A stretch of 64,000 bases of DNA from Candidatus Nomurabacteria bacterium GW2011_GWD2_36_14 (GCA_000991405.1 LBRL01000001.1:625841-689840), one strand, 5' to 3'. Shown: positions 34,185 through 55,534, counted from the first letter of the stretch. Translations and numbers: made by a program. Notes: a model not told the origin generated them from the letters alone.

Positions 34185-34186
34185 AT

Positions 34187-39152: not shown

Positions 39153-40883
39153 ATGAGTGATATGTCTGAAAGTAGAATATGTCAAAATTGTAAGCAAAAT
39201 TTCGTTATCGAGCCTGATGACTTCTCTTTCTATGAGAAGATTAAGGTCCCTCCACCAACCTTTTGTCCAGAGTGTAGAACTATAAGAAGATTATGTTGGC
39301 GTAATGAGATGTCTTTATTTAGAAGGAAATGTGACGTGCCTGGTCATAAAGAAATGCTCATTTCTTTTTATCCACCTGAGGAAAAATTAGTTATTTATGA
39401 TTCTAAATCATGGTGGGGAGATGGTTGGGATGCCCTTTCTTATGGTAGGGAATACGACTTTTCTAAATCATTTTTTGAACAATGGAAGGAATTAAGGGAT
39501 GTTTTCCCGCTTCAACACCTATCAAATTCTAATGCCACCAATAGTGATTACTGTAACATTGCGGAAGATAGTAAGAATAGTTATATGTCATCTGGATCTT
39601 GGAAAATTGAACAAACTCACTATTCTAATAGAATATTTTTTACCAAAGATTCTTCTGATCTATACATAGTTCAAAATTCTGAACTATGTTATGACGATGT
39701 AATGTGTTCGGACTGCTATCATTTAATGTATTCTCTTAATTGTAAGAATTGTGTTGATTCGTATTTCTTGTACGACTGTATAGGGTGCACTGACTGCTTT
39801 GGTTGCAGTAATCTCCGTAATAAATCATACTGTATTTGGAACGAACAATTTTCTAGAGAAGAATATAAGAGTCGTTTGGAAGAGATGAATTTAATGGATT
39901 TTAATGTGATTGAAAAATTTAAATTACATTTCAAAGAAATTTATTTAAAATCAATTCATCGTTTTGCCACTCAGATAAAATGTGTTAATTCGACAGGAGA
40001 GAATCTTAATGGGGTAAAAAATTGTAAATCATGTTTCGATTCTAGTGGTCAAATAGAAGATTCAAAATATGTTCATTGGTCTAAAATGAACTTAAAAGAT
40101 ACTTACGATTCAGGTCCAGGGGTAGGAATGGGGGAGTTGATGTATGAAACATTTGATACAGGAATAGGTAATTTTAGGAATCTTTTCACTAGTGTTGTTT
40201 ATAGTTCGAATGATATTGAGTATTGTTTTAATTGTCATGGAAGTTCTAATCTATTTGGTTGTATTGGTTTAAGAAATAAAAAATATTGTATTTTAAATAA
40301 ACAATATACAAAAGAAGAATATGAAGAATTGGTGATATCGATTAAAAAACAAATGATGGAAGTTCCTTATGTAGATAAAAAGGGGATTGTATACAAATAT
40401 GGTGAGTTCTTTCCAAGTGAACTTTCCCCTTTTTGTTACAATGAAACTCAAGCCCAAGATTATTTTCCAACAACAAGAGAAAAAGCTTTAGAGAATGGGT
40501 ATAGATGGCGAGACAGAAAAAATACTGAATACCAAATAACAATAAAAGCAAAAGATTTGCCTGATAATTTCGATGATAATAAAATTGATATCACTAAAGA
40601 AGTTATAGGTTGTTTGCATGAAGAAAATTGTCAGGATAGATGTAAGGGGGCATATAAAATAATAGAAGATGAACTTAATTTATATAAACGCCTTGGGGTT
40701 CCTCTGCCTAGACTATGCTTCTTTTGTAGGCATGAAAGTAGATTAAGAATGCGAACCCCCATGAAACTTTGGCATAGATCCTGTATGAAAGAAGGCTGTA
40801 CTAATGAATTTGAGACCTCGTATGCTCCAGAGAGGCCAGAGATCGTGTATTGCGAGAAGTGTTATCAACAGGAAGTATATTAA
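39153..40883 (+). CDS. Cysteine-rich multi-zinc-ribbon protein, paralog 2 of 5
   Basis: 576 aa. RICQNCKQNFVIEPDDFSFYEKIKVPPPTFCPECR ... CKNCVDSYFLYDCIGCTDCFGCSNLRNKSYCIWNEQ ... NLFGCIGLRNKKYCILNKQYTKEEYEEL ... KLWHRSCMKEGCTNEFETSYAPERPEIVYCEKCYQQEVY. Confidence 0.8.
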   Translation: MSDMSESRICQNCKQNFVIEPDDFSFYEKIKVPPPTFCPECRTIRRLCWRNEMSLFRRKCDVPGHKEMLISFYPPEEKLVIYDSKSWWGDGWDALSYGREYDFSKSFFEQWKELRDVFPLQHLSNSNATNSDYCNIAEDSKNSYMSSGSWKIEQTHYSNRIFFTKDSSDLYIVQNSELCYDDVMCSDCYHLMYSLNCKNCVDSYFLYDCIGCTDCFGCSNLRNKSYCIWNEQFSREEYKSRLEEMNLMDFNVIEKFKLHFKEIYLKSIHRFATQIKCVNSTGENLNGVKNCKSCFDSSGQIEDSKYVHWSKMNLKDTYDSGPGVGMGELMYETFDTGIGNFRNLFTSVVYSSNDIEYCFNCHGSSNLFGCIGLRNKKYCILNKQYTKEEYEELVISIKKQMMEVPYVDKKGIVYKYGEFFPSELSPFCYNETQAQDYFPTTREKALENGYRWRDRKNTEYQITIKAKDLPDNFDDNKIDITKEVIGCLHEENCQDRCKGAYKIIEDELNLYKRLGVPLPRLCFFCRHESRLRMRTPMKLWHRSCMKEGCTNEFETSYAPERPEIVYCEKCYQQEVY

Positions 40884-40886
40884 AAC

Positions 40887-42599
40887 ATGGAATATCAATC
40901 AGAAAATAAAATATGCCAAAACTGCAAGAAAGACTTCACTATCGAGATGGACGACTTTTCTTTCTATGAGAAGATAAAAGTTCCTCCACCAACATTTTGT
41001 CCGGAGTGTAGAATGCAGAGAAGATTTAGTGTTAGAAATGAGAGAAATTTATACAGAAGAGAATGTGGGCTATGTGGAAACAAAATAATTTCTATGTATT
41101 CTCCTGATAAACAATTTCCTGTGTTTTGTACTAGTTGCTGGTGGGGTGATAAATGGGATCCTACAGTAGATGGACAACAGTATGATTTTACAAAGCCGTT
41201 TTTTAAGCAGTTTCGTGAATTATTAAACAAAATACCCCGTCCTTCTCTTATCGTGCCAGATACAAAAAATTGTGACTTTTGTAATCATATGGCTGGTGGA
41301 AAAGACTCATATTTGTGTTTTGGATCTATAAACATAGAAAATTGTTTTTATGGTTCTCCTTATGAATCAAAATATTGTGTTGATACGTATGTATCTAGAG
41401 AATGCGAATATTGTTATGAATCTATAGATTCTGAAAAATTATCACGATGCAAATATTGTCATAATTGTTCTAATTCATTTGATTTAACATATTGTTTTGA
41501 TTGTAAAAATTGCAATGATTGCATAGGTTGTGCTGGTTTAAGAAATAAAAGTTATTTTATTTTTAATAAACAGTACACCAAAGAAGGATATTTAAAAGAA
41601 AAAAGTAAAATATTAGATGGAAGTTATAAAAAGTTAAATGCAATAAAAGAAGAGTTTGAAAATATAAAAATAAAATTACCACGCAAGTTTAGTACCATAT
41701 TATATTCAGATAATGTAAAAGGTGATCATATAGTCCAATCAAAAAATGCTACTTATTGTTTTGATGTTAAGAAAAGCAAGGATATTAAATATTGTAAACA
41801 AGTTATTGAAGCCATAGACGTTCATGATGCAAACTATTGTGAATTTATGGAACTATGTTATGACTACATAGGTTATTGGAAGATTAATAGAGTTCTTTTT
41901 TCTAATATAATTGGAGATTCAAATAATATTAAGTATTCAGATTTTTGTTCTGCTTCTTCAAATTTATTTGGGTGTATAGCACTCCGCTCCAAACAATACT
42001 GCATCCTAAACCGCCAATACACCAAATCCGAATACGAAGAGTTGGTTCCCAAAATCATAAAGCACATGTCCGACATGCCCTACATAGACTCTAAGGGAAG
42101 AGTATACAAATACGGTGAATTCTTCCCATCTGAACTCTCTCCCTTTGCCTACAACGAAACCATAGCTCAAGAATACTATCCATTAACTAAAGAACAAGCC
42201 CTAGAACAAGGATACAAGTGGAAAGACAAGGAAGAACGTAACTATACTATAGATATCCACACAGATGACATCCCTGACTCTATAAATGATACAGAAGACC
42301 AAGATATCCTAAACAAAGTCATTGAATGTTTCCATAAGGGAACCTGTAATCAACAATGCACAGAAGCCTTCAAGATTATCCCCGAAGAACTATCCTTCTA
42401 CCGACGTATGAACCTACCCTTACCTCGTCTCTGTCCTAACTGTCGACACTATGAACGTCTAGCTCAAAGAAACCCTATGAAATTATGGCATCGTTCCTGT
42501 ATGAAAGAGGGATGCACAAATACCTTTGAGACGAGTTATGCTCCTGAGAGACCGGAGATAGTGTATTGTGAGAAGTGTTATCAGGGGGAGGTGTATTAA
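40887..42599 (+). CDS. Cysteine-rich multi-zinc-ribbon protein, paralog 3 of 5 (tandem with paralog 2)
   Basis: 570 aa. The start is 3 nt after the stop of paralog 2. Same conserved termini and a divergent centre. Confidence 0.8.
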   Translation: MEYQSENKICQNCKKDFTIEMDDFSFYEKIKVPPPTFCPECRMQRRFSVRNERNLYRRECGLCGNKIISMYSPDKQFPVFCTSCWWGDKWDPTVDGQQYDFTKPFFKQFRELLNKIPRPSLIVPDTKNCDFCNHMAGGKDSYLCFGSINIENCFYGSPYESKYCVDTYVSRECEYCYESIDSEKLSRCKYCHNCSNSFDLTYCFDCKNCNDCIGCAGLRNKSYFIFNKQYTKEGYLKEKSKILDGSYKKLNAIKEEFENIKIKLPRKFSTILYSDNVKGDHIVQSKNATYCFDVKKSKDIKYCKQVIEAIDVHDANYCEFMELCYDYIGYWKINRVLFSNIIGDSNNIKYSDFCSASSNLFGCIALRSKQYCILNRQYTKSEYEELVPKIIKHMSDMPYIDSKGRVYKYGEFFPSELSPFAYNETIAQEYYPLTKEQALEQGYKWKDKEERNYTIDIHTDDIPDSINDTEDQDILNKVIECFHKGTCNQQCTEAFKIIPEELSFYRRMNLPLPRLCPNCRHYERLAQRNPMKLWHRSCMKEGCTNTFETSYAPERPEIVYCEKCYQGEVY

Positions 42600-42959: not shown

Positions 42960-45305
42960 ATGGTTGCAAAAAAGAAGGTGCTAAGTCTCAAAAAAAAGAG
43001 TACAAAGGTCGCCCTAAAGAGTGAGGAAGTTTCTGTTGAAAAAAAGTCAGACAAGAATATTTTTATTAAAAGCGTTCTTAAGAGAGATGGAACTACTGTT
43101 CCTTTTGATCTTAATAAGATAACGAATGCTATTAATAAAGCTATGCTTGCAAGCGGGGAAGGTTCTATCAAAGATGCCAATATTGTGGCTGATAAGGTTT
43201 TCAACGAAATAGTCAAAATAGCCAAGAAATATAAGAACTTTATGCCAACTGTGGAGGGCGTTCAGGACACTGTCGAGCAGGAACTTATGCTATCTGACTT
43301 CGTCAAAACTTCTAAGAACTATATTCTTTATCGTGAAGAGCGAGCACGTCTACGATCCCATAGTATAACTGTGCCAGAGCGTGTGAAGAAGCTAAATGAT
43401 GAAAGTAAAAAATATTTTAGAAATCCACTTTCTGAATTCGTTTACTATCGTTCATATGCGAAGTGGATTGAAGAAGAAGGAAGAAGAGAAACATGGATAG
43501 AGACTATCAGCAGATATGTTGAATTCATGAAAGGTAAGCTTGGAGACAAGCTGAAAGAAAGTGAATATGAAGAAGTACGTGAAGCAATCCTCAAGCAAGA
43601 AGCTATGCCTTCCATGAGACTCTTGCAATTTGCTGGTCCTGCTGCCGAGAAGACAAATGTCTGTGCTTACAACTGTTCATTCATAGCCCCATCTAAGTTT
43701 CAAGACTTTGGAGAGATTATTTACATCTCTATGTGTGGAACAGGAGTAGGATTCTCTGTAGAAAGTAAAAATATTCAAGCACTTCCTCAAATAAAAAATC
43801 AATCAGGCAAGAAGCTTCCTACTTTCGTTGTACCAGACACTAAAGAAGGCTGGGCAGATGCATTTGTCCTTGGTATGAAGACTTGGTTTGATGGTAATGA
43901 TATAGAGTTTGACTTCTCACTTTTGCGTCCAGCTGGGGCTCGTCTTAAAATAATGGGAGGTAAGAGTTCTGGCCCTAAACCCTTGATAGATCTACTTGGA
44001 TTTACACGAGACCGCATATTAAGACGCCAAGGTAGACACTTGAGGAATATAGATGCTCACGACATTATCTGTAAGATTGGTGAATGTGTAGTATCTGGTG
44101 GAGTTCGCCGAAGTGCCCTTATATCACTCTCTGACTTAGATGATTCTGAAATGCGTGATGCAAAAAACGGACAATTCTGGCTCAATGAAGGACAACGTAT
44201 GCTTGCGAACAATTCTGCCGTTTACAACGTTAAACCAACAGAAACAGAATTCTTGAAAGAATGGATTGCTCTTATGGAATCAGGAAGTGGAGAGAGAGGC
44301 ATCTTCAACCGCGGATCTCTTTATAAATCTCTTCCAAAGAGAAGAATCGAAAAGTCTGCTGATTTTATAGGGGAGATGGGTACAAATCCTTGTGGAGAGA
44401 TAATTCTAAGATCAAAGCAATTCTGTAACTTATCTGAAGTAGTGGCTAGAGCAGAAGACACTGAAGAATCTCTACTGAGAAAGATTCGCATCGCTACTAT
44501 TATTGGTACATACCAGTCGACGCTTACAAAGTTTGGATACTTATCAAAAGAATGGAAAGATAATTGTGATGCAGAGAAATTACTCGGAGTTTCTGTTACT
44601 GGGCAGTGGGATTCGAAGATTGCTCGCGACCCTGCCATGCTCACTAAACTTCGTCTTGAAGCTATTCGTGTAAACAAGGTATATGCAAAAAGATTTGGTA
44701 TCAATGAGTCTACTTGTATTACCGCTGTGAAGCCTTCTGGGACTGTCTCTCAGACTGTAGACTGTGCTTCAGGAATGCATCCTCGTCATGCGCCTTATTA
44801 TATACGTCGTATTCGTATTTCAGCGACAGACTCACTATTCAAAATGATGAAAGATCAAGGAGTTCCTTACCATCCAGAAGTTGGTCAGACTCTTGATGAG
44901 GCCAATACTTTCGTTCTTGAATTCCCAATGAAAGCTCCAGAGGATGCCATCTGTAAAGACGACATTACTGCTATCGATCAACTAGAACACTGGAAGGTTG
45001 TGAAGGTGAACTATACTGAACACAATCCTTCTGTAACTGTGTCAGTGGGGGAGAATGAATGGATACAAGTGGCACACTGGCTCTACCAGAACTGGGATAT
45101 TGTAGGAGGGCTTTCGTTCCTACCACGAAGCAACCATGTATACCAGCTTGCTCCTTATGAAGCCATAGACGAGAAGACTTACAAGGATCTTGTATCTAAA
45201 ATGCCAGACTTTGACTTCTCAAAGATTGTGACTTATGAGATGAGAGATGAAACCGAAGTAAAGAGAGAGCTGGCTTGCGTTTCTGGTGTTTGTGATATAG
45301 TGTAA
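42960..45305 (+). CDS. nrdJ: Ribonucleotide reductase large chain with N-terminal ATP-cone; active-site NPCGE motif suggests class II (adenosylcobalamin-dependent)
   Basis: ATP-cone (VLKRDGTTVPFDLNKITNAINKA), finger-loop TNPCGEI and a C-terminal CVSGVC redox tail. No nrdB is nearby. A B12-uptake locus lies immediately downstream. Confidence 0.8.
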   Translation: MVAKKKVLSLKKKSTKVALKSEEVSVEKKSDKNIFIKSVLKRDGTTVPFDLNKITNAINKAMLASGEGSIKDANIVADKVFNEIVKIAKKYKNFMPTVEGVQDTVEQELMLSDFVKTSKNYILYREERARLRSHSITVPERVKKLNDESKKYFRNPLSEFVYYRSYAKWIEEEGRRETWIETISRYVEFMKGKLGDKLKESEYEEVREAILKQEAMPSMRLLQFAGPAAEKTNVCAYNCSFIAPSKFQDFGEIIYISMCGTGVGFSVESKNIQALPQIKNQSGKKLPTFVVPDTKEGWADAFVLGMKTWFDGNDIEFDFSLLRPAGARLKIMGGKSSGPKPLIDLLGFTRDRILRRQGRHLRNIDAHDIICKIGECVVSGGVRRSALISLSDLDDSEMRDAKNGQFWLNEGQRMLANNSAVYNVKPTETEFLKEWIALMESGSGERGIFNRGSLYKSLPKRRIEKSADFIGEMGTNPCGEIILRSKQFCNLSEVVARAEDTEESLLRKIRIATIIGTYQSTLTKFGYLSKEWKDNCDAEKLLGVSVTGQWDSKIARDPAMLTKLRLEAIRVNKVYAKRFGINESTCITAVKPSGTVSQTVDCASGMHPRHAPYYIRRIRISATDSLFKMMKDQGVPYHPEVGQTLDEANTFVLEFPMKAPEDAICKDDITAIDQLEHWKVVKVNYTEHNPSVTVSVGENEWIQVAHWLYQNWDIVGGLSFLPRSNHVYQLAPYEAIDEKTYKDLVSKMPDFDFSKIVTYEMRDETEVKRELACVSGVCDIV

Positions 45306-45410: not shown

Positions 45411-45941
45411 ATGAAAAAAAGTATTAAATACATAACTGCATTTTTGGCTGTCTTTGCTATCAGGCTCATGCCCTTTCGGGCACCAAACGTAGAGCCACTA
45501 ATGACAGTCATAATGCCATTTGGGAAAGTTTATGGTGGTCTGTATGCATTTGCCTTTGGATTCTTTAGTATTGTATTGTTTGATGCTGTGACTTCAGGGC
45601 TTGGTATTTGGACTCTTGTAACAGCTTTGGCATATGGAGCTTTAGGTCTTGGAGCACAGTACTACTTCAAGAATCGTTCTGGCTGGAAGAATTATGCTAC
45701 ATATGCAGTTATAGCTACGATAGTTTATGACGCTGTTACAGGTCTTACTATTGGACCACTCTTCTTCCGTCAATCATTTATGGTGTCCCTCGTAGGGCAG
45801 ATTCCTTTCACCGCTCTACACTTGCTAGGGAATGTATCTTTTGCTATAGTACTAGCACCTTTGATTGAAAGATGGGTAGTGACCGCCTCTGTTAAAACTA
45901 CGGCGAGTCAAAGAATGAAAGCAAAAGAAGTTTTAGTGTAG
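45411..45941 (+). CDS. Small polytopic membrane protein, possibly an ECF-transporter S-component-like vitamin carrier
   Basis: 176 aa, 5-6 TM helices. Located between nrdJ and the cobalamin riboswitch locus. The family assignment is tentative. Confidence 0.35.
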   Translation: MKKSIKYITAFLAVFAIRLMPFRAPNVEPLMTVIMPFGKVYGGLYAFAFGFFSIVLFDAVTSGLGIWTLVTALAYGALGLGAQYYFKNRSGWKNYATYAVIATIVYDAVTGLTIGPLFFRQSFMVSLVGQIPFTALHLLGNVSFAIVLAPLIERWVVTASVKTTASQRMKAKEVLV

Positions 45942-45984
45942 AAAAAATTGTTTTGGTTAGTTAGTTTTTTAAAATTTAAACCTA

Positions 45985-46100
45985 TGTATTTGGAAGTGAG
46001 GTGTGATTCCTCTACTGTGCCGCAACGGTAATGCTCGTAAGAGATAAGTCCGATCTTAATACAACGGTGTTTCCCGAGCAGGAGAAATCTACTATTATTT
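45985..46100 (+). promoter_or_regulatory. Putative cobalamin (B12) riboswitch
   Basis: tGGAAgtgaGGTGTGATTCCtctaCTGtGCCGCAACGGTAATG parallels the E. coli btuB and Rfam cobalamin core (GGGAA..GGUG.AA.UCC..CUG..CGCAGCGGUAAGG). A downstream GAGCAGGAGA is B12-box-like. It is followed by an intrinsic terminator. Confidence 0.55.
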
Positions 46101-46106
46101 TAGAGA

Positions 46107-46136
46107 AAAGCCCCTGCGACAGCAGGGGCTTTTCTT
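46107..46136 (+). terminator. Intrinsic terminator (expression platform of the putative riboswitch)
   Basis: AAAGCCCCTGC-GACA-GCAGGGGCTTTTCTT. Confidence 0.6.
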
Positions 46137-46163
46137 GTAATATTTATAAATTTATCAAATCAT

Positions 46164-46664
46164 ATGAAAACAAAAGAACGAAAAATTTTAATAGGAGGCT
46201 TTGTTTTACTTATAATCGTTTTGGTTTTTCTGTTTCTTAATAGGAAGAAAGAAATACCTATCATTGTCCCCTTAGAACAGAATTATACAGAAGAAAAAAT
46301 TGAAACAATAGTTTCAATAAAAAATCAGAAAAACAAAGGTTTAAAAACAGTACAAACTGAAAATAGTATAAAAATTAAGTTTAGTGTTCTAGATAAAAAA
46401 TACGAAGTAGAGACAAGAGAAGGGGCATCGGTATTCGAAATGATGAAAACGCTGGAAGAGAAGAGTACTCCCCCTGATACATTTAGCTTCAAATATAAAG
46501 AAGTTTCAGGGTTGGGAAGTTTTATTACAGAGATAAATGGAGTAAAGGGAGCTCCCGGGGAGTACTGGATGTATTATGTGAACGACAAGCTCGCTTCCAT
46601 CGGAGTCTCACAATATATACTGAAAGAAGGGGATATTATTAGTTGGAAAAATGAAGGGATATAA
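46164..46664 (+). CDS. DUF4430-like secreted B12-binding protein (transcobalamin beta-domain-like)
   Basis: Signal/TM anchor then a ~120-aa domain (FEMMKTLEEK...GEYWMYYVNDKLASIGVSQYILKEGDIISWK). This is a typical DUF4430 C-terminus and is commonly riboswitch-controlled. Confidence 0.55.
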   Translation: MKTKERKILIGGFVLLIIVLVFLFLNRKKEIPIIVPLEQNYTEEKIETIVSIKNQKNKGLKTVQTENSIKIKFSVLDKKYEVETREGASVFEMMKTLEEKSTPPDTFSFKYKEVSGLGSFITEINGVKGAPGEYWMYYVNDKLASIGVSQYILKEGDIISWKNEGI

Positions 46665-46667
46665 TTT

Positions 46668-48668
46668 ATGATAAAAAATATTTTAAAAAAGTTTATAGTT
46701 TTGCTCGGATTGAGTTTTGTTTTAATAGGATTTAATTTTACAAAAGTAACCGCCGAAGATGCTCCTGTTCCTGCACCCATAGAATGTGTAGCGCCACAGA
46801 TTCTAAATGAAGCAAAAGATGCTTGTGTAGATGTGGTTGTAGTACCAGAAAAATTAAAAGAGCAAGTTGTCATTAGAAATGGAGATGTTATTTTATATGA
46901 TGGATTTTATGAGTTACCAGAATCTGGAATAATTTCAATTCCAGATAAAGATGGTGTTGCCCACGATATAAATGCACGTAGTGCTCTTGCTATACTTTAC
47001 GGTATTGATAGTACTAGTGATAACTTTTCAATTTCTACATTGGAATATAGTGGTGTTTATGATTCTCTATACATGAAATGCTTAACTCCAAGTGGGGGAG
47101 AGATCCTTTGTGATAACTGGCAGTATGTTGTAAACGATTCTTATCCATACGTTGGGATGGACAAAAATATTTTAAGTGGAAATGAAAAAATTTACATATA
47201 CTTTGGACAACAGAATAGAGTTCTCTTAAATAAAAATTTAATAAAAGATAACGAAGAATTAAATGTTACTGCTGAAAAGTATGACTATGAGCATAATCTT
47301 TGGCTTTCTCGTAGTGGAGTTACTGTAGGAGTTACCAAACCAGACCCAGCAAATCCATGGACTCCAAATGATGAGATCCAAAAAAAGGTTGATGATGTAA
47401 CTGGCATTGCAATATTCTCATCTGTACCAGAGGGTGAGTATAATGTAGGAATTAAAGAGGATTATTACTGGCCGACTGAAAAACTTGTAGTCACTAAATT
47501 TGTTCCAGAGAATAATGGTGGTGGGGGAGGTTCTAATACTCCTTTACCTCCTAAAACTTTTTCTACTTCCAAAGCTTTCGAATTTCTGTCTTTCAACCAG
47601 AAGAGTGATGGCTCATTTGGAGCTCCAATGTATACAGACTGGGTGGCGATAGCCTCTAAGGCAGGGGACAATGCTGACTTGAAATTGAAACTTACGAATT
47701 ATCTGAAGTCGAATCCTATAGATGGTGGAGTGGTTACTGACTATGAAAGGCGAGCGATGGCACTAATGGCTCTAGGTATAAATCCATACAATGGGACAGA
47801 GGTGAATTATATAAAGAAAATTACAGATAGCTTTGATGGAGTGCAGTTTGGTGATGCGAGCTTGGTAAACGATGATATCTTTGCTTTGATAGTTTTGAAA
47901 AATGCCGGATATACTGGAAGTGATGAAATGATAAATAAAGATGTAAACTATATTGTATCCAAGCAATCTGGTGGATCATGGGGAAGTATAGATATGACAG
48001 GGGCCGGCATCCAGGCCTTGAGAGGATTTGGAAATATTTCTGGTGTGTCTTCTTCAATTTCTTCAGCGGAAAATTATTTAGTTTCGAGTCAGGGAACAGA
48101 TGGAGGATTTGAAAATAATTCCTCGACTTCTTGGGCATTGCAAGCTCTCATAGATGCTAACAGTGTTTCAAAAGCGACTGATTACTTGGCTTCTGGCCAA
48201 CAGTCAGATGGTGGGTTAGAAAATACGATAGACGAGACAGACGTCCGCGTGTGGTCTACGGCTTATGCTATACCCGCAGTGCTACACAAAACATGGAGTA
48301 GTATCTTGGATAATTTCTCTAAACAAGAAGTGGCTCCTGCTCCAGCTTCTTCACCTTCTTTAATACAAGAAATTAAATCAGAAATTGTCGCTCCTGCTAT
48401 AGTAGAAGAAGAAAAGAAAGATCTAGAAGTGCTTCCAAAAGTAGAAGATAAAAAAATAATCAAGCCAATAGTCAGACAGACAACAAAACCGATAATAAAA
48501 ACAAGTGCAACAACAAATACGAAAATAGAGAAGCCTATAGGGAGTCCTCTTTCTGCTAGTGCTATAGGAGTGAGTGAGTCAAACAATAACTTCTTGTCTA
48601 TAGTTCACAATGTGATATCTAAAATAAAGGCACCATTTGTATGGCTTTTGGTTAAGCTCGGGTTCTGA
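46668..48668 (+). CDS. Surface protein with prenyltransferase/squalene-cyclase-like alpha-alpha toroid repeats (transcobalamin alpha-domain-like), C-terminal membrane anchor
   Basis: Signal peptide. Repeated QxxDGSF/GGF motifs (QKSDGSFGAP, SKQSGGSWGS, SQGTDGGFEN, GQQSDGGLEN). Gly-rich linker GGGGGSNTP. C-terminal hydrophobic FVWLLVKLGF. Confidence 0.65.
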   Translation: MIKNILKKFIVLLGLSFVLIGFNFTKVTAEDAPVPAPIECVAPQILNEAKDACVDVVVVPEKLKEQVVIRNGDVILYDGFYELPESGIISIPDKDGVAHDINARSALAILYGIDSTSDNFSISTLEYSGVYDSLYMKCLTPSGGEILCDNWQYVVNDSYPYVGMDKNILSGNEKIYIYFGQQNRVLLNKNLIKDNEELNVTAEKYDYEHNLWLSRSGVTVGVTKPDPANPWTPNDEIQKKVDDVTGIAIFSSVPEGEYNVGIKEDYYWPTEKLVVTKFVPENNGGGGGSNTPLPPKTFSTSKAFEFLSFNQKSDGSFGAPMYTDWVAIASKAGDNADLKLKLTNYLKSNPIDGGVVTDYERRAMALMALGINPYNGTEVNYIKKITDSFDGVQFGDASLVNDDIFALIVLKNAGYTGSDEMINKDVNYIVSKQSGGSWGSIDMTGAGIQALRGFGNISGVSSSISSAENYLVSSQGTDGGFENNSSTSWALQALIDANSVSKATDYLASGQQSDGGLENTIDETDVRVWSTAYAIPAVLHKTWSSILDNFSKQEVAPAPASSPSLIQEIKSEIVAPAIVEEEKKDLEVLPKVEDKKIIKPIVRQTTKPIIKTSATTNTKIEKPIGSPLSASAIGVSESNNNFLSIVHNVISKIKAPFVWLLVKLGF

Positions 48669-48680
48669 TATAATAGTGGA

Positions 48681-49067
48681 ATGAATAAAACAAAATTTTT
48701 TATTATATTTACAGTTATTATAGTGTTACTAGTTGGGGGATTTGGGGTTTATATGACTAAAGCAAATATTAAGCAATCAACAAAACTTGATGGTTTTGCT
48801 CAGTGTTTGAAAAGTAGTGGAGTGGAGTTTTATGGAACGTTTTGGTGTTCTCATTGTCAAAATCAAAAGAAACTTTTTGGATCTTCTAAACAATATCTTC
48901 CTTATATAGAATGTTCTACTCCCGATGGAACAGGTCAACTCCAAGTTTGTAAAGATAAAGGAATAGAAGGTTATCCAACTTGGATATTTAAAGACGGGTC
49001 CCGTCTCTCTGGAGAATTATCACTTCAAACATTAGCAGAGAAGACAAATTGTATCTTGCCAGAATAG
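48681..49067 (+). CDS. Membrane-anchored thioredoxin-like protein (DsbA/BdbD-type partner)
   Basis: N-terminal TM helix, then FYGTFWCSHCQNQKKLFG (CxxC) in a Trx fold. Confidence 0.7.
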   Translation: MNKTKFFIIFTVIIVLLVGGFGVYMTKANIKQSTKLDGFAQCLKSSGVEFYGTFWCSHCQNQKKLFGSSKQYLPYIECSTPDGTGQLQVCKDKGIEGYPTWIFKDGSRLSGELSLQTLAEKTNCILPE

Positions 49068-49080
49068 AGTATTAAAATAT

Positions 49081-49629
49081 ATGCCAGCATATCTAGACAC
49101 AGTGAATAAGATTTTAGCCTTGGGGACGATCTTTCTCCAAGTAGTTATTCTAAGTGTCCTAATAATTTTAATTTTCTTTAGAAGTAGGAATAATCCTCTA
49201 TTACTCTTCTTCAAGAAATATACTTTCATCCTTGGATTCTTGGGAGCATTGGGGGCATTTAGTTTATCTCTCTTTTATTCTGAAATAATTGGCTTCCCAC
49301 CTTGTGAGCTTTGCTGGATTCAGAGAATATTCTTGTACCCTCAACTAATACTATTTGGAATGGAACTCTACAAGAGAGATAAATCAATCGTGGATTTCAG
49401 CTTGGTCTTTGCTATTATCGGTTCAATAGTCTCTATCTATCATATATTTGTAGAAACTGGATTAACTTCTGGTCCTTCGTGTGCAGATCCATCTCGTGGG
49501 GGAGTCTCTTGCGCAATTCGATATATCTATGAATTCGGCTACGTTACTATGCCAGTCATGGCTCTAACATTATCACTATTTATAATTGTACTTCTGGTCA
49601 ATTATAAATACATGGCAAGAGTGAAATAA
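49081..49629 (+). CDS. Disulfide bond formation protein B-like (DsbB/BdbC family)
   Basis: Four TM helices. First-loop PCELCWIQR (compare DsbB PCVLCIYER, BdbC CWYQR). Second-loop cysteine pair SCADPSRGGVSC. Confidence 0.7.
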   Translation: MPAYLDTVNKILALGTIFLQVVILSVLIILIFFRSRNNPLLLFFKKYTFILGFLGALGAFSLSLFYSEIIGFPPCELCWIQRIFLYPQLILFGMELYKRDKSIVDFSLVFAIIGSIVSIYHIFVETGLTSGPSCADPSRGGVSCAIRYIYEFGYVTMPVMALTLSLFIIVLLVNYKYMARVK

Positions 49630-49678
49630 ACGTCATTTGGCATATTTCAGCCATGGCGTAAATATGCCAAATAGAAAT

Positions 49679-51382
49679 ATGGAACAAAAATTAGAAAAAA
49701 GGATATGTCAGAATTGTAGGCTTCAATTTACAATAGAGCCAGATGACTTTTCTTTTTATGAGAAAATAAAGGTTCCAGCGCCGACTTTCTGTCCGGAGTG
49801 TCGGATGCAAAGAAGATTTACTTTTAGAAATGAAAGAGTATTGCATAGAAATAAATGTGCTAAAACTGGTAAAAGTGTAATCAGCTGTTTCTCTAGCGAA
49901 TCCCCATTTATTATTTATGACAGAGATATATGGTGGAGTGATAAATGGGACCCGACAGAATATGGTATGGATTATGACTTTTCAAGACCATTTTTTAAAC
50001 AATTTAGGGAACTATTGGAAAAGGTTCCACAGCCCAATCTTTTTATAGGTAAATGTACTGATACTTTATATGGCAATCACATTGGAGAATTTAAAAATTC
50101 TTACTTAGTCTCGGCTTCTTGGTTGGGGGAAAATATAAATTATGCTTCTCGTTGTAATGAAAGCAAGGATTCTATGGATATGTTTACAACAGTAAATTGT
50201 GAGTTTTGTTATGATGATGTTTCTTGTGTTAAGTGTTACGAAACTTTCTATTCACAGAATGCTGTATCTTGTGTCAGTTCCTATTTTCTTTATGATTGTA
50301 AAAATTGTACGAACTGTTTTGGCTGTACAAATTTAAGAAACAAATCTTATTGTATTTGGAATGAACAGTTGACTAAAGAAGAATACTTTAAAAAATTAAG
50401 TGAATTAAATATAGGAAATTATAATAATTTTAAAAAAATTAAAGAAGAATTTAATAAGTTTAAACTTTCAGCATTGAGAAGATTTTCTAATATAGTAAAT
50501 TCAAGTAATGTTAGCGGTGATGACATAACCAATGCGAGTAATTCTCATGATTGTTTCTATGTAGCCAATAATATAAAAGATTGTAGGTTTCTAATAAATG
50601 CGATTGATCGTTTAAATGATTCATATGATGGATATGGAGTAGGAGCCAATACACAGCTTCTTTATGAAGGAATTGACTCAGGTGTAAATGGTTCTATGCA
50701 ACTTTTTACAGCAACTTCTTGGGAGTGTTTAAATACAGAATATTCTTATAATTGTCATGGTTGTAACAATCTTTTTGCTTGTGTGGGTTTGAGGGAAAAT
50801 AGTTATTGTATTTTTAATAAACAGTATTCAAAAGGAGAATATATTGAACTTAAGAAAAAAATCATAGAACATATGAATAATATTCCTTATACAGATAAGA
50901 AGGGGAATGTATATAAATATGGAGAGTTTTTCCCTGCGGAGATTTCTCCATTTGGGTATAACGAAACTGTTGCAGAGGATTATTTTCCACTTTCTGAAGA
51001 TGATATAAAAAGTAATGGATATAATTTTCTTAATCCTGACAAATCAGGATATACAATTACGCATACAAGTAAAGACATACCAGATGATATCAAAGATATT
51101 AAAGAAACAATCCTTGATTATATTATAGAATGTGAATCTTGTAATAAAGGGTATAAAATAATCCAATCAGAATATGAATTTCTGAAGAGATTTAACTTAC
51201 CTATACCAAGAAAATGTTTTGAATGTAGGCATAAAGATCGTTTTAATCAAGTGAATCCTCCAAAGCTCTGGCATAGATCCTGCATGAAAGAAGGCTGTAC
51301 GAATACCTTTGAGACGAGTTATGTTCCTGAGAGGCCGGAGATTATATACTGTGAGAAGTGCTACCAGAATGAGGTGTATTAG
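49679..51382 (+). CDS. Cysteine-rich multi-zinc-ribbon protein, paralog 4 of 5
   Basis: The ORF track gives 49637. By alignment with the other paralogs the likely start is MEQKLEKRICQNCRLQF. Conserved termini; centre contains DCKNCTNCFGCTNLRNKSYCIWNEQ. Confidence 0.8.
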   Translation: MEQKLEKRICQNCRLQFTIEPDDFSFYEKIKVPAPTFCPECRMQRRFTFRNERVLHRNKCAKTGKSVISCFSSESPFIIYDRDIWWSDKWDPTEYGMDYDFSRPFFKQFRELLEKVPQPNLFIGKCTDTLYGNHIGEFKNSYLVSASWLGENINYASRCNESKDSMDMFTTVNCEFCYDDVSCVKCYETFYSQNAVSCVSSYFLYDCKNCTNCFGCTNLRNKSYCIWNEQLTKEEYFKKLSELNIGNYNNFKKIKEEFNKFKLSALRRFSNIVNSSNVSGDDITNASNSHDCFYVANNIKDCRFLINAIDRLNDSYDGYGVGANTQLLYEGIDSGVNGSMQLFTATSWECLNTEYSYNCHGCNNLFACVGLRENSYCIFNKQYSKGEYIELKKKIIEHMNNIPYTDKKGNVYKYGEFFPAEISPFGYNETVAEDYFPLSEDDIKSNGYNFLNPDKSGYTITHTSKDIPDDIKDIKETILDYIIECESCNKGYKIIQSEYEFLKRFNLPIPRKCFECRHKDRFNQVNPPKLWHRSCMKEGCTNTFETSYVPERPEIIYCEKCYQNEVY

Positions 51383-51475
51383 AAAATTAACCCAGTAGGT
51401 GGTTTTACTGAATCAGAATTAAAAAATTCCAGTCTAAACTGGGATTTTTTGTTTTTTATTTGGTATAATGTTTAC

Positions 51476-53239
51476 ATGCATATCGATGAAACTACGATTA
51501 TAAATCTTTTAAATACTTCGGGGCTAGTCAGTAAGACGGACGTGGCGATGGCGGTCAAGAAAGCGAAAGAAACCAATCAGACACTTGGGGCGGTTCTGAT
51601 GAGTGATGGCAAACTTACTGAGAAGGACTGGAATAGTATGCAGGCGGTGTCGCTTGGAATCCCATTTGTTAGCTTGAAAGGGGAGAAGATTGCTCCTGAA
51701 GTTTTGAATCTTATCCCTGAGCCTATTGCTCGCAACAATAATATAATTGCATATAAGAAGTCAGCCTCTGGACTTGAAGTTGCAATGCTAGATGTAGACA
51801 ACTTGCCAGTTATCGACTTTATCAAAAAGAAAGTGGGACTTCGAATCCTACCACGTATGACTTCCTCTGACTCTATCAAGGAAGCACTTTCTCTATACAA
51901 GAAAAGTCTACAAGCAGACTTTGAAGATATTATAAAGAAAGAGACTGGGACTTTGGGATCTATAGTGGATAATGCTTTCGCAGGAGAGAAGACAGACAAC
52001 AGCCAAAAGACAGAAAAGGAACTTGCTGAAGATCTACCTATCGTGAAAATTGTCGATACACTTATCTCCCATGCTATCCTTCAGGGATCTTCTGACATAC
52101 ATATTGAACCTGGGGAAGAGTCGCTCATAGTTCGCTATCGTATTGATGGAATTCTACATGACGCCATGGTACTTCCGAAAGATACTGCTCCCGGAATTGT
52201 GGCACGTATCAAAGTACTTTCTAACTTGAAACTTGACGAGAAGCGATTGCCTCAAGACGGACGTTTTAAAATTATAAATGATTCTGGGAGAGTTTCCTTC
52301 CGTGTTTCTACTTTACCTACATACTTTGGAGAGAAGACAGTCATACGTATTTTGCGAGAAAATGCTAAAGGTTTCTCGCTTGAGGGCTTGGGCTTCCACG
52401 GGGAAGCACTTGAGAGAATTCATAGAGGAATGAAGAAAAGAAATGGAATGTTGCTCGCTGCTGGACCAACTGGATCTGGTAAGACCACGACTCTATATAC
52501 AATGCTTGATATATTGAACACTCCAGATGTAAATATTTCGACGGTTGAAGACCCTATCGAATATCAAATGGCAAGAATAAACCAAACTCAGACCAAATCC
52601 GAAATAGGGCTAACCTTTGCCAATGGACTTCGTACTCTTCTTCGTCAGGACCCTGACATCATCATGGTGGGAGAGATTCGTGATGGAGAGACTGCCTCTC
52701 TAGCGGTGAATGCATCGCTAACAGGGCACTTGGTGCTTTCAACTATACACACCAACTCAGCGGCAGGAGCTATACCACGTATGATAGATATGGGAGTGGA
52801 ACCATTCCTCATCGTATCGACAGTCAAGACAGTAATCGCTCAGCGTTTAGTTCGTAAACTTTCAGAAGAGAAAGAAAAGTACAACTTGAGTAAAGTAGAG
52901 CTCACCGCTTTAAGTAAGGTTGTAAACTTGGATGTAGTTCTCGATACACTGAAGAAGGAAAAGATTGTGAAGGACGATGCTACATGGGAAGAGATACCAT
53001 TCTATAAACCAAAGCCCAACAAAGACTCACCGGATGGCTACAAGGGGCGCGTCGGGATTCATGAAGTACTAGAAGTTAGTAGTACTATCAAGGAAATGAT
53101 TCTAAAGAATTCTTCGGCTGACGACTTAGAAAAAATAGCCAAGAAAGAAGGTATGATGACAATGCTTGAAGATGGAATCTTCCTAGTGGCATCAGGAGTT
53201 ACTTCTACCGAAGAAGTTCTTCGTGTGGTGTCGGAATAA
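51476..53239 (+). CDS. pilB: Type IV pilus assembly ATPase PilB (GspE family)
   Basis: N-terminal GSPII_E_N-like domain. Walker A GPTGSGKTT, Asp box, His box, Walker B. The ORF track starts at 51449. Confidence 0.85.
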   Translation: MHIDETTIINLLNTSGLVSKTDVAMAVKKAKETNQTLGAVLMSDGKLTEKDWNSMQAVSLGIPFVSLKGEKIAPEVLNLIPEPIARNNNIIAYKKSASGLEVAMLDVDNLPVIDFIKKKVGLRILPRMTSSDSIKEALSLYKKSLQADFEDIIKKETGTLGSIVDNAFAGEKTDNSQKTEKELAEDLPIVKIVDTLISHAILQGSSDIHIEPGEESLIVRYRIDGILHDAMVLPKDTAPGIVARIKVLSNLKLDEKRLPQDGRFKIINDSGRVSFRVSTLPTYFGEKTVIRILRENAKGFSLEGLGFHGEALERIHRGMKKRNGMLLAAGPTGSGKTTTLYTMLDILNTPDVNISTVEDPIEYQMARINQTQTKSEIGLTFANGLRTLLRQDPDIIMVGEIRDGETASLAVNASLTGHLVLSTIHTNSAAGAIPRMIDMGVEPFLIVSTVKTVIAQRLVRKLSEEKEKYNLSKVELTALSKVVNLDVVLDTLKKEKIVKDDATWEEIPFYKPKPNKDSPDGYKGRVGIHEVLEVSSTIKEMILKNSSADDLEKIAKKEGMMTMLEDGIFLVASGVTSTEEVLRVVSE

Positions 53240-53244
53240 TATGG

Positions 53245-53285
53245 CCACATGTCGGACTTGTGGAATCCACAAGTCCGACATGTGG
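53245..53285. repeat. Perfect 41-bp palindrome between pilB and pilC
   Basis: CCACATGTCGGACTTGTGG-AAT-CCACAAGTCCGACATGTGG. Each half is itself hairpin-like and shares its core with the rpsT terminator (12392..12416). Confidence 0.6.
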
Positions 53286-53295
53286 ACGAATAGAT

Positions 53296-54510
53296 ATGAA
53301 ATTTAAATACAAAGAACAAAATAAAGAAGGATCTATAGTAGAAGGGCTTGCAGAAGCCCCGGATACATTTGCCCTAGCAAGGGAGATTAGAGAGAGGGGG
53401 TCTGTCCCTCTCTCAGTAAAGGAATATAATGAAAAAGAATTTAAATTCTCTTTTAATCTTGAAATTTTCGGAGGTGTTTCTCTGTCTGAGAAGATAATGT
53501 TTACTAATAATCTGAGTGGAATGCTCTCAGCCGGTCTATCTCTCACTCGAGCTCTCTCTGTCCTAGAAAAGCAGACTACCAATAAATTCTTCAACAACAT
53601 CTTAAAGAGCTTGATAGACGATATAAACAAGGGAGGCACACTTTCCTCTGGTATGAAAAAGTTCCCGAAAGTCTTCTCGGGAGTTTTCGTTTCCATGGTT
53701 CACTCTGGAGAAGAGTCAGGCGGTCTACCTAAGACACTCTCCGAGGTAGGTATGACCCTGAAGAAGACTTATGATTTAAATAGGAAAATAAAAGGAGCTC
53801 TTATCTATCCTAGTATCATTGTAGCGGCGATATTCATCATTGGAATTCTAATGATGATATACGTGGTGCCAACTTTGACTAAAACTTTCACCGATACAGG
53901 AGTAGAACTACCAGCACCTACAAAAGTCATAATCTTTATTTCCAATATGCTCTCTCAACACTTCTTACTATTTGCCTTAGTTATAGGATTGGTTATAGGT
54001 TCGGGGTTCTTGTTTGCTAAGTTGAAATTTACCCAAAGGTATTTTGACATATTTATCCTTAAGCTACCAATGTTAGGCACTCTTATAAAAGAGATGAATA
54101 CAGCTAGAACTGCCCGAACTCTTTCCTCGCTATTGGCCTCTGGAGTAGATGTATCAAGGGCATTAGAGATCACAGAAGAAGTCTTACAGAACGTTCACTA
54201 TAAAGAGCTAATTCACAATGCTATAGGTTCTATAGAAAAAGGAGTAGCTCTCTCTGAATCTTTCAAGGCCAACACGCATCTCTATCCTATCATGGTGGGG
54301 GAAATGATTGAGGTAGGAGAAGAAACCGGTAAGCTCTCTCAAATGCTTATAGATATAGCCGTATTCTATGAGACAGAAGTCGACAATAAAACCAAGAATC
54401 TCTCGACTATCATAGAGCCAGTGCTGATGATATTCATAGGAGTAGCCGTTGGCTTCTTTGCTATTGCGATGATTAAGCCTATGTATACAGTAATGGATAA
54501 TATTAATTAA
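53296..54510 (+). CDS. pilC: Type IV pilus platform protein PilC (GspF family)
   Basis: Two GspF repeats, three TM helices, ..GEETGKLSQML.. motif. The ATG at MKFKYKEQ is preferred over the GTG start at 53260 used by the ORF track. Confidence 0.85.
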   Translation: MKFKYKEQNKEGSIVEGLAEAPDTFALAREIRERGSVPLSVKEYNEKEFKFSFNLEIFGGVSLSEKIMFTNNLSGMLSAGLSLTRALSVLEKQTTNKFFNNILKSLIDDINKGGTLSSGMKKFPKVFSGVFVSMVHSGEESGGLPKTLSEVGMTLKKTYDLNRKIKGALIYPSIIVAAIFIIGILMMIYVVPTLTKTFTDTGVELPAPTKVIIFISNMLSQHFLLFALVIGLVIGSGFLFAKLKFTQRYFDIFILKLPMLGTLIKEMNTARTARTLSSLLASGVDVSRALEITEEVLQNVHYKELIHNAIGSIEKGVALSESFKANTHLYPIMVGEMIEVGEETGKLSQMLIDIAVFYETEVDNKTKNLSTIIEPVLMIFIGVAVGFFAIAMIKPMYTVMDNIN

Positions 54511-54515
54511 TAATT

Positions 54516-55001
54516 ATGAAAAATAAATACAACAAAGGGTTCACCATGTTAGAATTATTGATAGTAATTGTCATTATAGGAATAATTTCTTCTATTGTTT
54601 TAGTAAATCTGTCTTCCTTTCGCAACGAGCAAGCATTACGTAATACAGCGGTTGATATTGTTGCTCTACTAAATAAAGCTCGGCAAAACACTATTTCCTC
54701 TGTGAATTCAAGCAACTATAGCGTCCATTTTGAATCTGGTAGAGCTGTGCTATTTACTGGCAGTACGTATTCTTCGTCAAATAGTACCAATGAACCTATT
54801 GATTTTAGTCCAGTTGTTGCTATTCCTGCCACTGGGGGAATAAATATATCGGGTGGAGGGAGCGATATCACCTTTGAACGTTTAACAGGGGGAGTTATCA
54901 ATGGTACAATTGATAGTACTGTGGTGTTAGAATTAGTTTCTGATTCCACGAAACAAAAAACGATTACAATTAGCAAGATGGGAGTTGTAAGCTTAAATTA
55001 A
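54516..55001 (+). CDS. Type IV pilin (prepilin N-terminal cleavage/methylation domain)
   Basis: KGFTMLELLIVIVIIGIISSI, the class III signal peptide (G/FTxxE) with a hydrophobic helix. Confidence 0.8.
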   Translation: MKNKYNKGFTMLELLIVIVIIGIISSIVLVNLSSFRNEQALRNTAVDIVALLNKARQNTISSVNSSNYSVHFESGRAVLFTGSTYSSSNSTNEPIDFSPVVAIPATGGINISGGGSDITFERLTGGVINGTIDSTVVLELVSDSTKQKTITISKMGVVSLN

Positions 55002-55529
55002 ATGATTAACTTAAATAAAAATAAAAAGAAGTTATTATCTGGATTTACAATAATTGAGGTTCTTGTAGCTTGCGCTATTATCTCGATCTCTATGTTTGCT
55101 CTAATGCAGACAGCACAAAAGGGGATACAACTCTCAGGTGTAGCCTTGAAGAAATCTCAAGCCAGCTTTCTCTTGGAAGAGGGGGCGGAAGCCGTGAAGT
55201 CTATTCGTGACAACAACTGGACAACTATATCTAATTTAAGTTTAAGTCCTACACAATATCATTTATTCTTCAATAATAGTTCGTCTGCTTGGGTTCTAGA
55301 CACTAGTAGTACTAGCTTGGTGGGGAGTACGACCGTATATCCACTAAATGGTTTCGATCGCAAGGTTACCATTTACTCTGTAGGTAGAGATGACAGTGAT
55401 GATATCCTAGAGTCAGGTGGAACTATAGACCCACGTACGAAGAAAGTGACAGTCGAAGTGAGCTGGAACTCTTCTGGTGTAGCTAACACCAAGAGTTTGT
55501 CATTTTATATTACTGATATTTTTAATTAA
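55002..55529 (+). CDS. Minor pilin / pseudopilin
   Basis: SGFTIIEVLVACAIISISMFAL prepilin motif. Confidence 0.75.
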   Translation: MINLNKNKKKLLSGFTIIEVLVACAIISISMFALMQTAQKGIQLSGVALKKSQASFLLEEGAEAVKSIRDNNWTTISNLSLSPTQYHLFFNNSSSAWVLDTSSTSLVGSTTVYPLNGFDRKVTIYSVGRDDSDDILESGGTIDPRTKKVTVEVSWNSSGVANTKSLSFYITDIFN

Positions 55530-55534
55530 TAACA

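Follow-up and report, generated by a model that had tools for sequence, protein, structure and literature searches.

A predicted cobalamin riboswitch ahead of a DUF4430 and alpha/alpha-toroid surface protein module in Candidatus Nomurabacteria and related bacteria

Bacteria of the Candidate Phyla Radiation (CPR, or Patescibacteria) are mostly uncultured, get by with a minimal metabolism and are presumed dependent on other cells, and the ways in which they acquire cofactors are largely obscure. Here we describe a locus in a 64,000-nucleotide stretch of DNA (the window) from Candidatus Nomurabacteria bacterium GW2011_GWD2_36_14 (GCA_000991405.1, LBRL01000001.1:625841-689840), where a predicted cobalamin (vitamin B12) riboswitch and an intrinsic terminator precede two genes for membrane-tethered surface proteins, the first a DUF4430 protein of 166 amino acids and the second a protein of 666 amino acids that carries an alpha/alpha toroid. 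Upstream of the riboswitch lie the genes for a class II ribonucleotide reductase (RNR) and for a small membrane protein of the S-component type, and downstream of the pair lie those for a thioredoxin and a DsbB-like oxidoreductase. Positions are counted from the first letter of the window, and all window features given below with start and end positions are on the + strand. An earlier note, made from the sequence alone, had proposed a cobalamin riboswitch controlling the two surface protein genes as a B12-capture module next to a B12-dependent RNR. That central reading is supported by the comparative analyses reported here, and the repressing arrangement of terminator and antiterminator fits it.

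Searching the whole window with cmscan against Rfam gave a match to RF01482 (AdoCbl riboswitch, for adenosylcobalamin) at 45965-46096, with a score of 54.4 bits against a gathering threshold of 50 and an E-value of 3.3e-7, and this is the sole riboswitch in the 64 kb at the gathering threshold. Cobalamin riboswitches are divided in Rfam into RF01482, RF01689 and RF00174, all members of clan CL00101. The covariance scan suggested in the earlier note thus does return a match above gathering, although the best family is RF01482 and not RF00174 or RF01689, the two that had been named. As the match spans the full model (positions 1-149) over 132 nt, with the 5' strand of P1 beginning at about 45978, the idea that the element is a compact variant of the class can be set aside.

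The conserved core of the aptamer is complete. The GGAA junction is at 45993-45996, from the sequence and the RF01482 alignment, and the motifs GGTGTGATTCC (46001-46011) and CTG-T-GCCGCAACGGTAATG (46015-46035) are read directly in the sequence; all three had been recognised before, but the spacer between CTG and GCCGC is of one nucleotide and not two. The L5 loop, UGCCG (46018-46022), is aligned to uCcCg of the model. The B12 box is AAGUCCGAUCUU (46046-46057), which the RF01482 model aligns to AAGUCAGGUCUU and which is kept in the alignment of 68 matches. The segment formerly taken for the B12 box, GAGCAGGAGA (46077-46086), lies 3' of P1 and is part of the P13/L13 hairpin and antiterminator strand described below. 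L5 is the kissing-loop partner in this class and has the consensus UCCCG (PMC10327014); it is UGCCG in 62 of the 63 distinct leaders aligned here. The minimum free energy (MFE) of the full leader is -57.2 kcal/mol, with a z-score of -4.15 relative to shuffled sequences. Judging from sequence, 45965-46096 is an ordinary, Rfam-detectable member of the known cobalamin riboswitch class, for which selective binding of corrinoids is predicted.

The element is widely conserved together with the genes that follow it. The DUF4430 and 666-amino-acid proteins are 100% identical to the hypothetical proteins A2467_01825 and A2467_01830 of Candidatus Nomurabacteria bacterium RIFOXYC2_FULL_36_8, and two other Nomurabacteria genomes (L001 and L002) share the gene order RNR, S-component, riboswitch, DUF4430 protein, large protein, thioredoxin and DsbB, with riboswitches that score 51.4 and 64.1 bits, respectively, against RF01482, both above gathering. 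A further 80 loci came from metagenomes scanned with a large-protein alignment, making a total of 82 related loci. A covariance model derived from the aptamers of the three Nomurabacteria genomes found a coding-strand match in 66 of them, typically 600-1000 nt 5' of the large gene and just ahead of the DUF4430 gene; Rfam adds matches to RF00174 above gathering in two loci that this model missed (L029 and L057). Since 11 loci end too near the gene to be informative, 71 are left, and in 68 of these CPR loci a cobalamin riboswitch is present at the equivalent position, with encoded proteins that are only about 40% identical. The other three (L030, L073 and L075) carry the DUF4430/toroid pair and adequate upstream sequence, yet have no cobalamin riboswitch above threshold; L073 has a sub-threshold RF01689 match of 21 bits at 4165-4252 of that locus, the expected place, and the riboswitch may have been lost or have strongly diverged in all three. 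In about half of the loci the RNR and S-component genes are missing upstream and the riboswitch still stands ahead of the module, and in L069 and L079 it is directly 5' of the toroid gene, so that it tracks the module and not the upstream genes.

In the 63 distinct aligned sequences, 92.9% of the pair cells hold standard pairs, and 22 of the 26 pairs show changes on both sides, so that helices P1-P6 are upheld by compensatory substitutions. The covariation score is 0.546, against 0.03-0.06 (about ten-fold lower) when the pairing partners are slid, and none of 500 shuffles reached the observed value; fitting the alignment to the model favours the structure, yet the margin remains large. These data bear on the possibility that we are dealing with a decayed or chance riboswitch-like sequence without regulatory function. 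The score in the window exceeds gathering by just 4.4 bits, the outer pairs of P1 are weak across the alignment (57-84% paired) and three related loci are without a detectable copy, all of which such a chance match would explain. It would not explain an E-value this low over the whole window, the retention of the element in nearly all informative loci alongside such divergent proteins, or the compensatory changes and the conserved, matching expression platform that follows the aptamer. We regard this explanation as extremely improbable and, on the comparative sequence data, as effectively refuted already. The model built from the Nomurabacteria aptamers also matched weakly (24.8 bits) at 18579-18628, a G+C-rich hairpin AAGGCCTTGCCTT...AAGGCAAGGCCTT. 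As a riboswitch this is a false positive, a simple hairpin in which the aptamer core and nearly all model positions are deleted, and it is most likely an intrinsic terminator.

The intrinsic terminator that had been predicted after the aptamer is found at 46103-46136. It has 15 pairs, 8 of them G-C, with a core stem formed by GCCCCUGC (46110-46117) and GCAGGGGC (46122-46129) around the loop GACA, and is followed by a T-run (UUUUCUU in the transcript); the hairpin energy is -20.1 kcal/mol and it is the strongest terminator within 42.6-51.6 kb. An equivalent terminator is present in 58 of the 63 leaders examined. Between aptamer and terminator, right after P1, there is a motif, (U)CCCGAGCAGGA, that is almost invariant despite the freely diverged helices of the aptamer. 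After it come a variable hairpin and then the terminator, whose 3' arm is commonly GCAGGA followed by a U-run; the motif therefore mimics that arm. In the window it forms a putative mini-hairpin, P13/L13, of the sequence UCC-CGAGCA-GGA(G) at 46072-46084 (loop L13, CG(A)GCA), assigned from covariation and complementarity, with a spacer segment at 46085-46102 before the terminator. The CGAGCA loop is found in 63 of 64 distinct leaders, and the stem covaries (UCC/GGA in 51, UUC/GAA in 3, UCU/AGA in 1 and CUU/AAG in 1), amounting to three kinds of double compensatory change. Two other assignments were discarded. The P13 that Rfam gives for the window (AGCAGG/UCUACU) is unconserved in L002, and the UCC/GGA mini-stem was used instead. 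The loop of the first hairpin, UGUGAUU (L4 in standard numbering), was tried as an L5 that pairs with the spacer; its cognate pairing energy was -0.8 kcal/mol against -1.13 kcal/mol for non-cognate combinations, and in 490 of 500 permutations the pairing was just as strong.

The 3' half of P13 contains the putative antiterminator strand, GCAGG (46078-46082), which is complementary to the 5' arm of the terminator. Among all 12-mers of a leader, the motif is the top partner of this arm in 47 of the 58 leaders with a terminator, and the duplexes have a mean energy of -11.3 kcal/mol, where the leader's other 12-mers give -3.25 kcal/mol and shuffled arms -5.2 kcal/mol. The antiterminator appears in the MFE structure of 54 of the 58 transcripts when these are truncated ahead of the 3' arm of the terminator, and the MFE structures of the full-length leaders contain the terminator in 36 cases and the antiterminator in 22, the kind of split that a bistable element would give. 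The motif would be under a triple constraint, from L5, from the P13 stem and from the terminator arm, which accounts for its invariance.

This layout closely resembles that of the repressing metE riboswitch of Priestia megaterium, for which Kennedy and colleagues demonstrated by compensatory mutagenesis that L5 kisses L13 and stabilises P13 (PMC10327014). When P13 is not so stabilised, its 3' side pairs in that switch with the 5' arm of the terminator, from which a structured region separates P13 (PMC10327014). Likewise, P13 follows P1 here and has a loop complementary to L5, its 3' side is complementary to the 5' arm of the terminator, and a structured spacer lies between them. The differences are that P13 is cut down to a 3-bp stem with a 6-nt loop, that its sequence (UCC-CGAGCA-GGA) is near-invariant over the whole clade, and that L5 is UGCCG where the class has UCCCG, so that the proposed kissing loop needs a bulged A, as has been reported for env8 (PMC10327014). 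A further difference is that one P13/L13 and terminator design serves aptamers of three Rfam families. The related aptamers are split by Rfam among RF01482, the shorter RF01689 and the longer RF00174, and the near-invariant P13/L13 with its matching terminator is joined to all three, ahead of the same gene pair in different CPR lineages. Going by these alignments, the periphery of the aptamer has been remodelled while the regulatory module stayed fixed, and the conserved 12-nt P13/L13 module provides a compact natural example of how a corrinoid expression platform can be built.

Activating corrinoid riboswitches are also known, an example being that of A. halodurans cobT, and in this type P13 and the terminator overlap and are mutually exclusive (PMC10327014). 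One can therefore ask whether the element is an ON switch, or whether it serves mainly as a B12-conditional terminator of the upstream RNR and S-component operon, regulating read-through rather than transcription from a promoter of its own. There is no convincing terminator between the stop codon of the S-component gene (45941) and the riboswitch, and promoter scans are uninformative in this AT-rich DNA, which leaves room for read-through. At this locus, however, P13 (46072-46083) does not overlap the terminator (46103-46136), whose 5' arm is complementary to the 3' half of P13 as in the repressing layout, and the riboswitch keeps its place before the DUF4430/toroid pair in loci that have no RNR or S-component gene upstream. 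Read-through from upstream would in any case be compatible with repression of the surface protein genes, since the controlled genes would be unchanged. We judge an activating or purely read-through role to be quite improbable.

The leader is thus very probably a functional, transcription-terminating OFF switch for corrinoids, the direction of regulation (B12 bound, OFF) being taken from the analogy with P. megaterium metE. On this model, when a corrinoid is bound L5 (UGCCG) would kiss L13 and keep P13 closed; with P13 closed the terminator at 46103-46136 would form, and transcription would halt at about 46136, ahead of the DUF4430 gene. With no corrinoid present, P13 would be too weak to last, and its 3' half, GAGCAGGA, would pair with the 5' arm of the terminator. 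This antiterminator, capped by the spacer hairpin, would let RNA polymerase read on into the genes for the DUF4430 protein and the DUF4430/immunoglobulin-like/toroid protein, and perhaps also into the thioredoxin/DsbB pair. We infer both the L5-L13 kissing loop itself and the binding of the ligand by the RNA.

The first gene after the terminator (46164-46664) encodes a single-pass, membrane-anchored protein of 166 amino acids. Its assignment to DUF4430, made before, is borne out by a match to PF14478 of 60.4 bits (cut-off 23.8), as is the likeness of its fold to the transcobalamin (TC) beta domain; DUF4430 is the C-terminal domain of TCN proteins (PMC4350170). The AlphaFold2 (AF2) model consists of a transmembrane helix (residues 2-25), a disordered linker and a beta-rich domain with a TC beta-domain-like fold at about 68-161, for which the predicted local distance difference test (pLDDT) score is about 80. 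When the model is compared with the PDB using Foldseek, the top 11 matches are all transcobalamin; haptocorrin (4kki) matches as well, and 5np4, the isolated human TC beta domain with cyanocobalamin, is among the PDB matches. The isolated human TC beta domain 5no0 superposes on the model with a TM-score of 0.64 and a root-mean-square deviation of 2.5 Å. Sequence and model together suggest that this protein is a membrane-anchored homologue of the TC beta domain, and its homology and genomic context make corrinoid binding a reasonable expectation. Neither phmmer searches of three proteins of the locus against PDB sequences, which gave nothing useful, nor a DUF4430 profile search meant for relatives outside the CPR, which returned CPR proteins only, added to this picture. 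The earlier note's statement that such proteins are typically under riboswitch control was accordingly examined within the CPR.

The second gene (46668-48668) encodes the 666-amino-acid surface protein, whose AF2 model has a pLDDT of 82.8. From its N-terminus it is predicted to carry a signal or anchor helix (residues 3-24), a second DUF4430-like domain (64-180) that is beta-rich and has invariant Cys138 and Cys148 and a CDNWQY motif, an immunoglobulin-like (Ig-like) domain (183-276), an alpha/alpha toroid of 12 helices (300-546), a disordered linker of about 80 residues (560-640) and a C-terminal transmembrane helix (641-663). The toroid, which had been recognised from the sequence, is a high-confidence prediction. 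In homologues the N-terminal domain passes the Pfam threshold for DUF4430 (29-50 bits), with the window copy below it, and 18 of 64 homologues match DUF4430; a direct hhalign comparison of the DUF4430 family with the N-domain of the large protein aligned the W-Y-VN motif only, at 2.4% probability, and the assignment of a second DUF4430 domain accordingly rests on the Pfam matches of the homologues. More than 792 homologues of the large protein were found, nearly all in Parcubacteria-type CPR. The DUF4430 gene is ahead of the large gene in nearly every locus, and the module always has at least one DUF4430 domain, usually two.

The relationships of the toroid are less specific. SQHop_cyclase_C matches the toroid in all 64 homologues, TED in 52 and Cobalamin_bind in 45, and the E-values for the first two are equal to or better than those for Cobalamin_bind. 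In Foldseek comparisons complement TED/alpha-2-macroglobulin, terpene cyclases and transcobalamin all fall within 1e-7 to 1e-5. A specific homology of the toroid to transcobalamin is not established by these comparisons, in which cyclases and TED match as well as PF01122 (Cobalamin_bind) or better; on the models, it is a toroid of the 6-hairpin superfamily, transcobalamin-like in fold and context and not demonstrably of that family. To call both folds of the pair known B12-binding surface proteins, as had been done, was thus too strong, the toroid resembling squalene-hopene cyclase and complement TED no less than the TC alpha domain. Nor does a single chain carry an alpha6/alpha6 toroid and then a beta domain: DUF4430 comes first, Ig second and the toroid last, with another DUF4430 domain on a separate protein. 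At the ends of its inner helices the toroid bears an invariant NDD together with further residues that are acidic or polar.

Upstream of the riboswitch, the gene at 42960-45305 encodes an RNR of 781 amino acids. Pfam identifies an N-terminal ATP-cone, RNR_Alpha, the barrel and RNR-II_ins_dom (PF21995, 33.2 bits against 27); TIGR02505 (RTPR) matches with 281.5 bits and an E-value of 1.3e-83, under the equivalog cut-off of 340. An NPCGE motif is present at residue 476 and a pair of cysteines, CVSGVC, at the C-terminus. The insertion domain, NPCGE and the similarity to RTPR mark it as a class II, RTPR-like enzyme and hence, by sequence, as adenosylcobalamin-dependent, in agreement with the earlier note. 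It does not lie immediately upstream as stated there: a gene that the note had passed over, at 45411-45941, intervenes between the RNR and the riboswitch and encodes a membrane protein of 176 amino acids, which we refer to as the CbrT-like S-component. Being upstream of the riboswitch, this gene is outside its control. The match of the protein to PF07155 is marginal (26.9 bits, cut-off 26.7), and 20 of 23 family members match. A profile of these 23 relatives has a sole meaningful match in the PDB, 6fnp_A (the energy-coupling factor transporter ECF-CbrT), with an E-value of 0.074 over near full length, and hhalign of the family with a fragment of CbrT gives a weak similarity (91% probability, E 1e-6, 62 columns) that includes a shared PNV(E/Q)P segment.

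In Lactobacillus delbrueckii cbrT adjoins nrdJ, in the cluster nrdJ-cbrS-cbrT-pduO (PMC5997447). The present locus is like that of ECF-CbrT (6FNP, PMC5997447) in that a small protein of the S-component type, with profile similarity to CbrT, is encoded beside an AdoCbl-dependent class II RNR; it is unlike it in the weakness of that similarity and in that no ECF A, A' or T component, cbrS or pduO is present in the window parts surveyed. A solitary mode of action has been proposed for BtuM (PMC6072759). Of the 82 loci, 29 have an RNR homologue in the 5 kb upstream of the module, and 27 have the S-component gene, which lies beside the RNR in either order. These observations make the S-component a candidate corrinoid transporter subunit.

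Taken together, we consider it likely that the locus comprises a cobalamin OFF switch controlling a corrinoid-capture module that feeds the S-component and the class II RNR. When B12 is scarce, the two tethered ectodomains would take up extracellular corrinoids and hand them to the CbrT-like S-component, and the imported corrinoid would supply the adjacent AdoCbl-dependent RNR. That the module binds corrinoids is, in our estimation, fairly probable, and corrinoid capture under B12 scarcity is the most likely role of the two surface proteins, with hand-off to the S-component as a presumed step.

An alternative is that the riboswitch is real and the proteins do not bind corrinoids, serving instead some process that is needed when B12 is lacking, such as getting round a stalled class II RNR by scavenging deoxynucleosides or other molecules from the host, or remodelling of the envelope through a toroid enzyme or binder. 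Cobalamin riboswitches do repress B12-independent substitutes, metE among them (PMC10327014), and genes for class I and III RNRs likewise; moreover, the toroid is nearer to terpene cyclases and TED than to transcobalamin by sequence and fold, and the invariant NDD and acidic or polar inner-helix ends would suit such a function. On the other hand, DUF4430 is always part of the module and among solved structures matches only the beta domain of cobalamin carriers, both proteins are predicted to be extracytoplasmic and tethered, unlike cyclases, and the link to a CbrT-like S-component fits uptake. We regard this alternative as unlikely.

Several observations nevertheless weigh against corrinoid capture under an OFF switch as we have described it. 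With regard to the proteins, the window copy of the 666-amino-acid protein has no Pfam match to Cobalamin_bind (PF01122), and the profile of the toroid family, compared with the PDB, finds squalene-hopene cyclase with an E-value of 1e-14 and transcobalamin with about 0.5. The 166-amino-acid protein is modelled with only moderate confidence (overall pLDDT 68), and the lowest E-value that Foldseek gives for the model is 2e-3. Neither an ECF A/T module nor an adenosyltransferase or any further B12 gene turned up in the surveyed 10 kb upstream and 12 kb downstream or in the annotated stretches at 28.1-40.9 kb and 53.3-63.8 kb; the parts examined hold just one exporter-type ABC ATPase, at about 37.3 kb. 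With regard to the RNA, the unconstrained full-length MFE structure of the window leader breaks up the aptamer, and the antiterminator in the window is just 5 bp (GCAGG at 46078-46082 with CCUGC at 46113-46117, -9.7 kcal/mol). L13, CG(A)GCA, and L5, UGCCG, are complementary if a single A is bulged out, and because both loops are invariant covariation is uninformative about their pairing. In addition, aptamer and antiterminator are compatible as secondary structures and can coexist, so that coupling to the ligand depends on the inferred tertiary contact. Finally, the comparative loci were picked by their similarity to the large protein and include near-duplicates, the number of distinct leaders being 64.

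A more far-reaching proposal, to which we incline only tentatively and give slightly less than even odds, is that the DUF4430 and DUF4430-Ig-toroid proteins, as two chains tethered to the membrane, together make up a bacterial counterpart of transcobalamin and intrinsic factor and clamp corrinoids between the face of the toroid and a beta domain, and that Parcubacteria-type CPR acquire B12 mainly through them, with the corrinoid passing to a solitary CbrT-like S-component and on to the class II RNR. Transcobalamin, intrinsic factor and haptocorrin (PF01122 plus a DUF4430 C-terminal beta domain) similarly combine an alpha6/alpha6 toroid with DUF4430, both extracellular; the superposition of the DUF4430 model on the TC beta domain and the many toroid homologues that match Cobalamin_bind extend the likeness. 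In contrast to the eukaryotic carriers, the domains here are divided between two polypeptides tethered to the membrane, and the beta-like domain occurs twice; where it shares a chain with the toroid it is N-terminal, and an Ig-like domain comes between the two; the toroid is no nearer to TC than to cyclases and TED, and corrinoid binding is predicted. If the proposal is true, a relative of the eukaryotic B12 carrier architecture is widespread among prokaryotes, and these reduced organisms would need corrinoids from neighbouring cells in order to synthesise DNA.

A parallel in regulatory logic can be drawn with BtuG and BtuH of Bacteroides, surface-exposed proteins that are repressed by riboswitches, bind corrinoids with high affinity and supply a membrane transporter. 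Their folds bear no relation to the present ones, BtuG being a beta-propeller, and those proteins act at the outer membrane with BtuB, whereas the proteins described here would be anchored in the cytoplasmic membrane of CPR bacteria. A literature search for DUF4430, prenyltransferase or CPR in connection with cobalamin riboswitches found nothing relevant. In the literature searched the controlled genes are not a known member of B12 regulons, and the regulated DUF4430 and toroid module, its prevalence in CPR and its link to a CbrT-like protein and a class II RNR are undescribed. Current ideas are not overturned by the locus: its riboswitch is of an ordinary kind within the family, uptake genes would be expected to be under feedback repression, and the platform conforms to a model already published. 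It does offer a concrete, testable route, from a B12-sensing RNA through two repressed surface proteins and a candidate transporter subunit to a B12-dependent enzyme of DNA precursor synthesis, and hundreds of unannotated CPR proteins are members of the family to which the two surface proteins belong.

The module is followed by genes for a membrane-anchored thioredoxin with the motif WCSHC and a transmembrane helix (48681-49067, Pfam Thioredoxin) and for a DsbB/BdbC-like oxidoreductase (49081-49629, Pfam DsbB); the stretch 48681-49629 also matches NF002849 with 97.8 bits. The large gene, the thioredoxin and the DsbB gene are packed with gaps of 13-14 nt and there is no strong terminator before 51420, so that the thioredoxin/DsbB pair may be co-transcribed with the module. 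The next strong terminator, with 14 pairs and a T-run, is at 51420-51451 and possibly marks the 3' end of the riboswitch-controlled transcript. In many related loci the pair recurs downstream on the same strand or nearby in convergent orientation. It may be an extracytoplasmic disulfide-forming pair, and could oxidise the invariant Cys138 and Cys148 of the large protein.

Five paralogues of about 570-580 amino acids, 40-49% identical to each other, are encoded in the window (6081-7826, 39153-40883, 40887-42599, 49637-51382 and 59787-61490). They contain 30-39 cysteines and zinc-ribbon-like CxxC ends and have no match in Pfam or NCBIfam. The RNR/B12 locus lies between two of the five, and in many related CPR contigs it is likewise flanked by homologues. 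Directly downstream of the locus, at 51449-56047, is a set of genes resembling those of type IV pili and type II secretion (T2SSE ATPase, T2SSF platform protein and two N-methyl pilin-like proteins). Further upstream, at 32748-36118, two adjacent GH130 genes (beta-1,4-mannooligosaccharide phosphorylase type) are found with genes for a mannose-6-phosphate isomerase-like cupin and an aldose epimerase, and the group resembles a small cluster for mannoside utilisation within a reduced genome.

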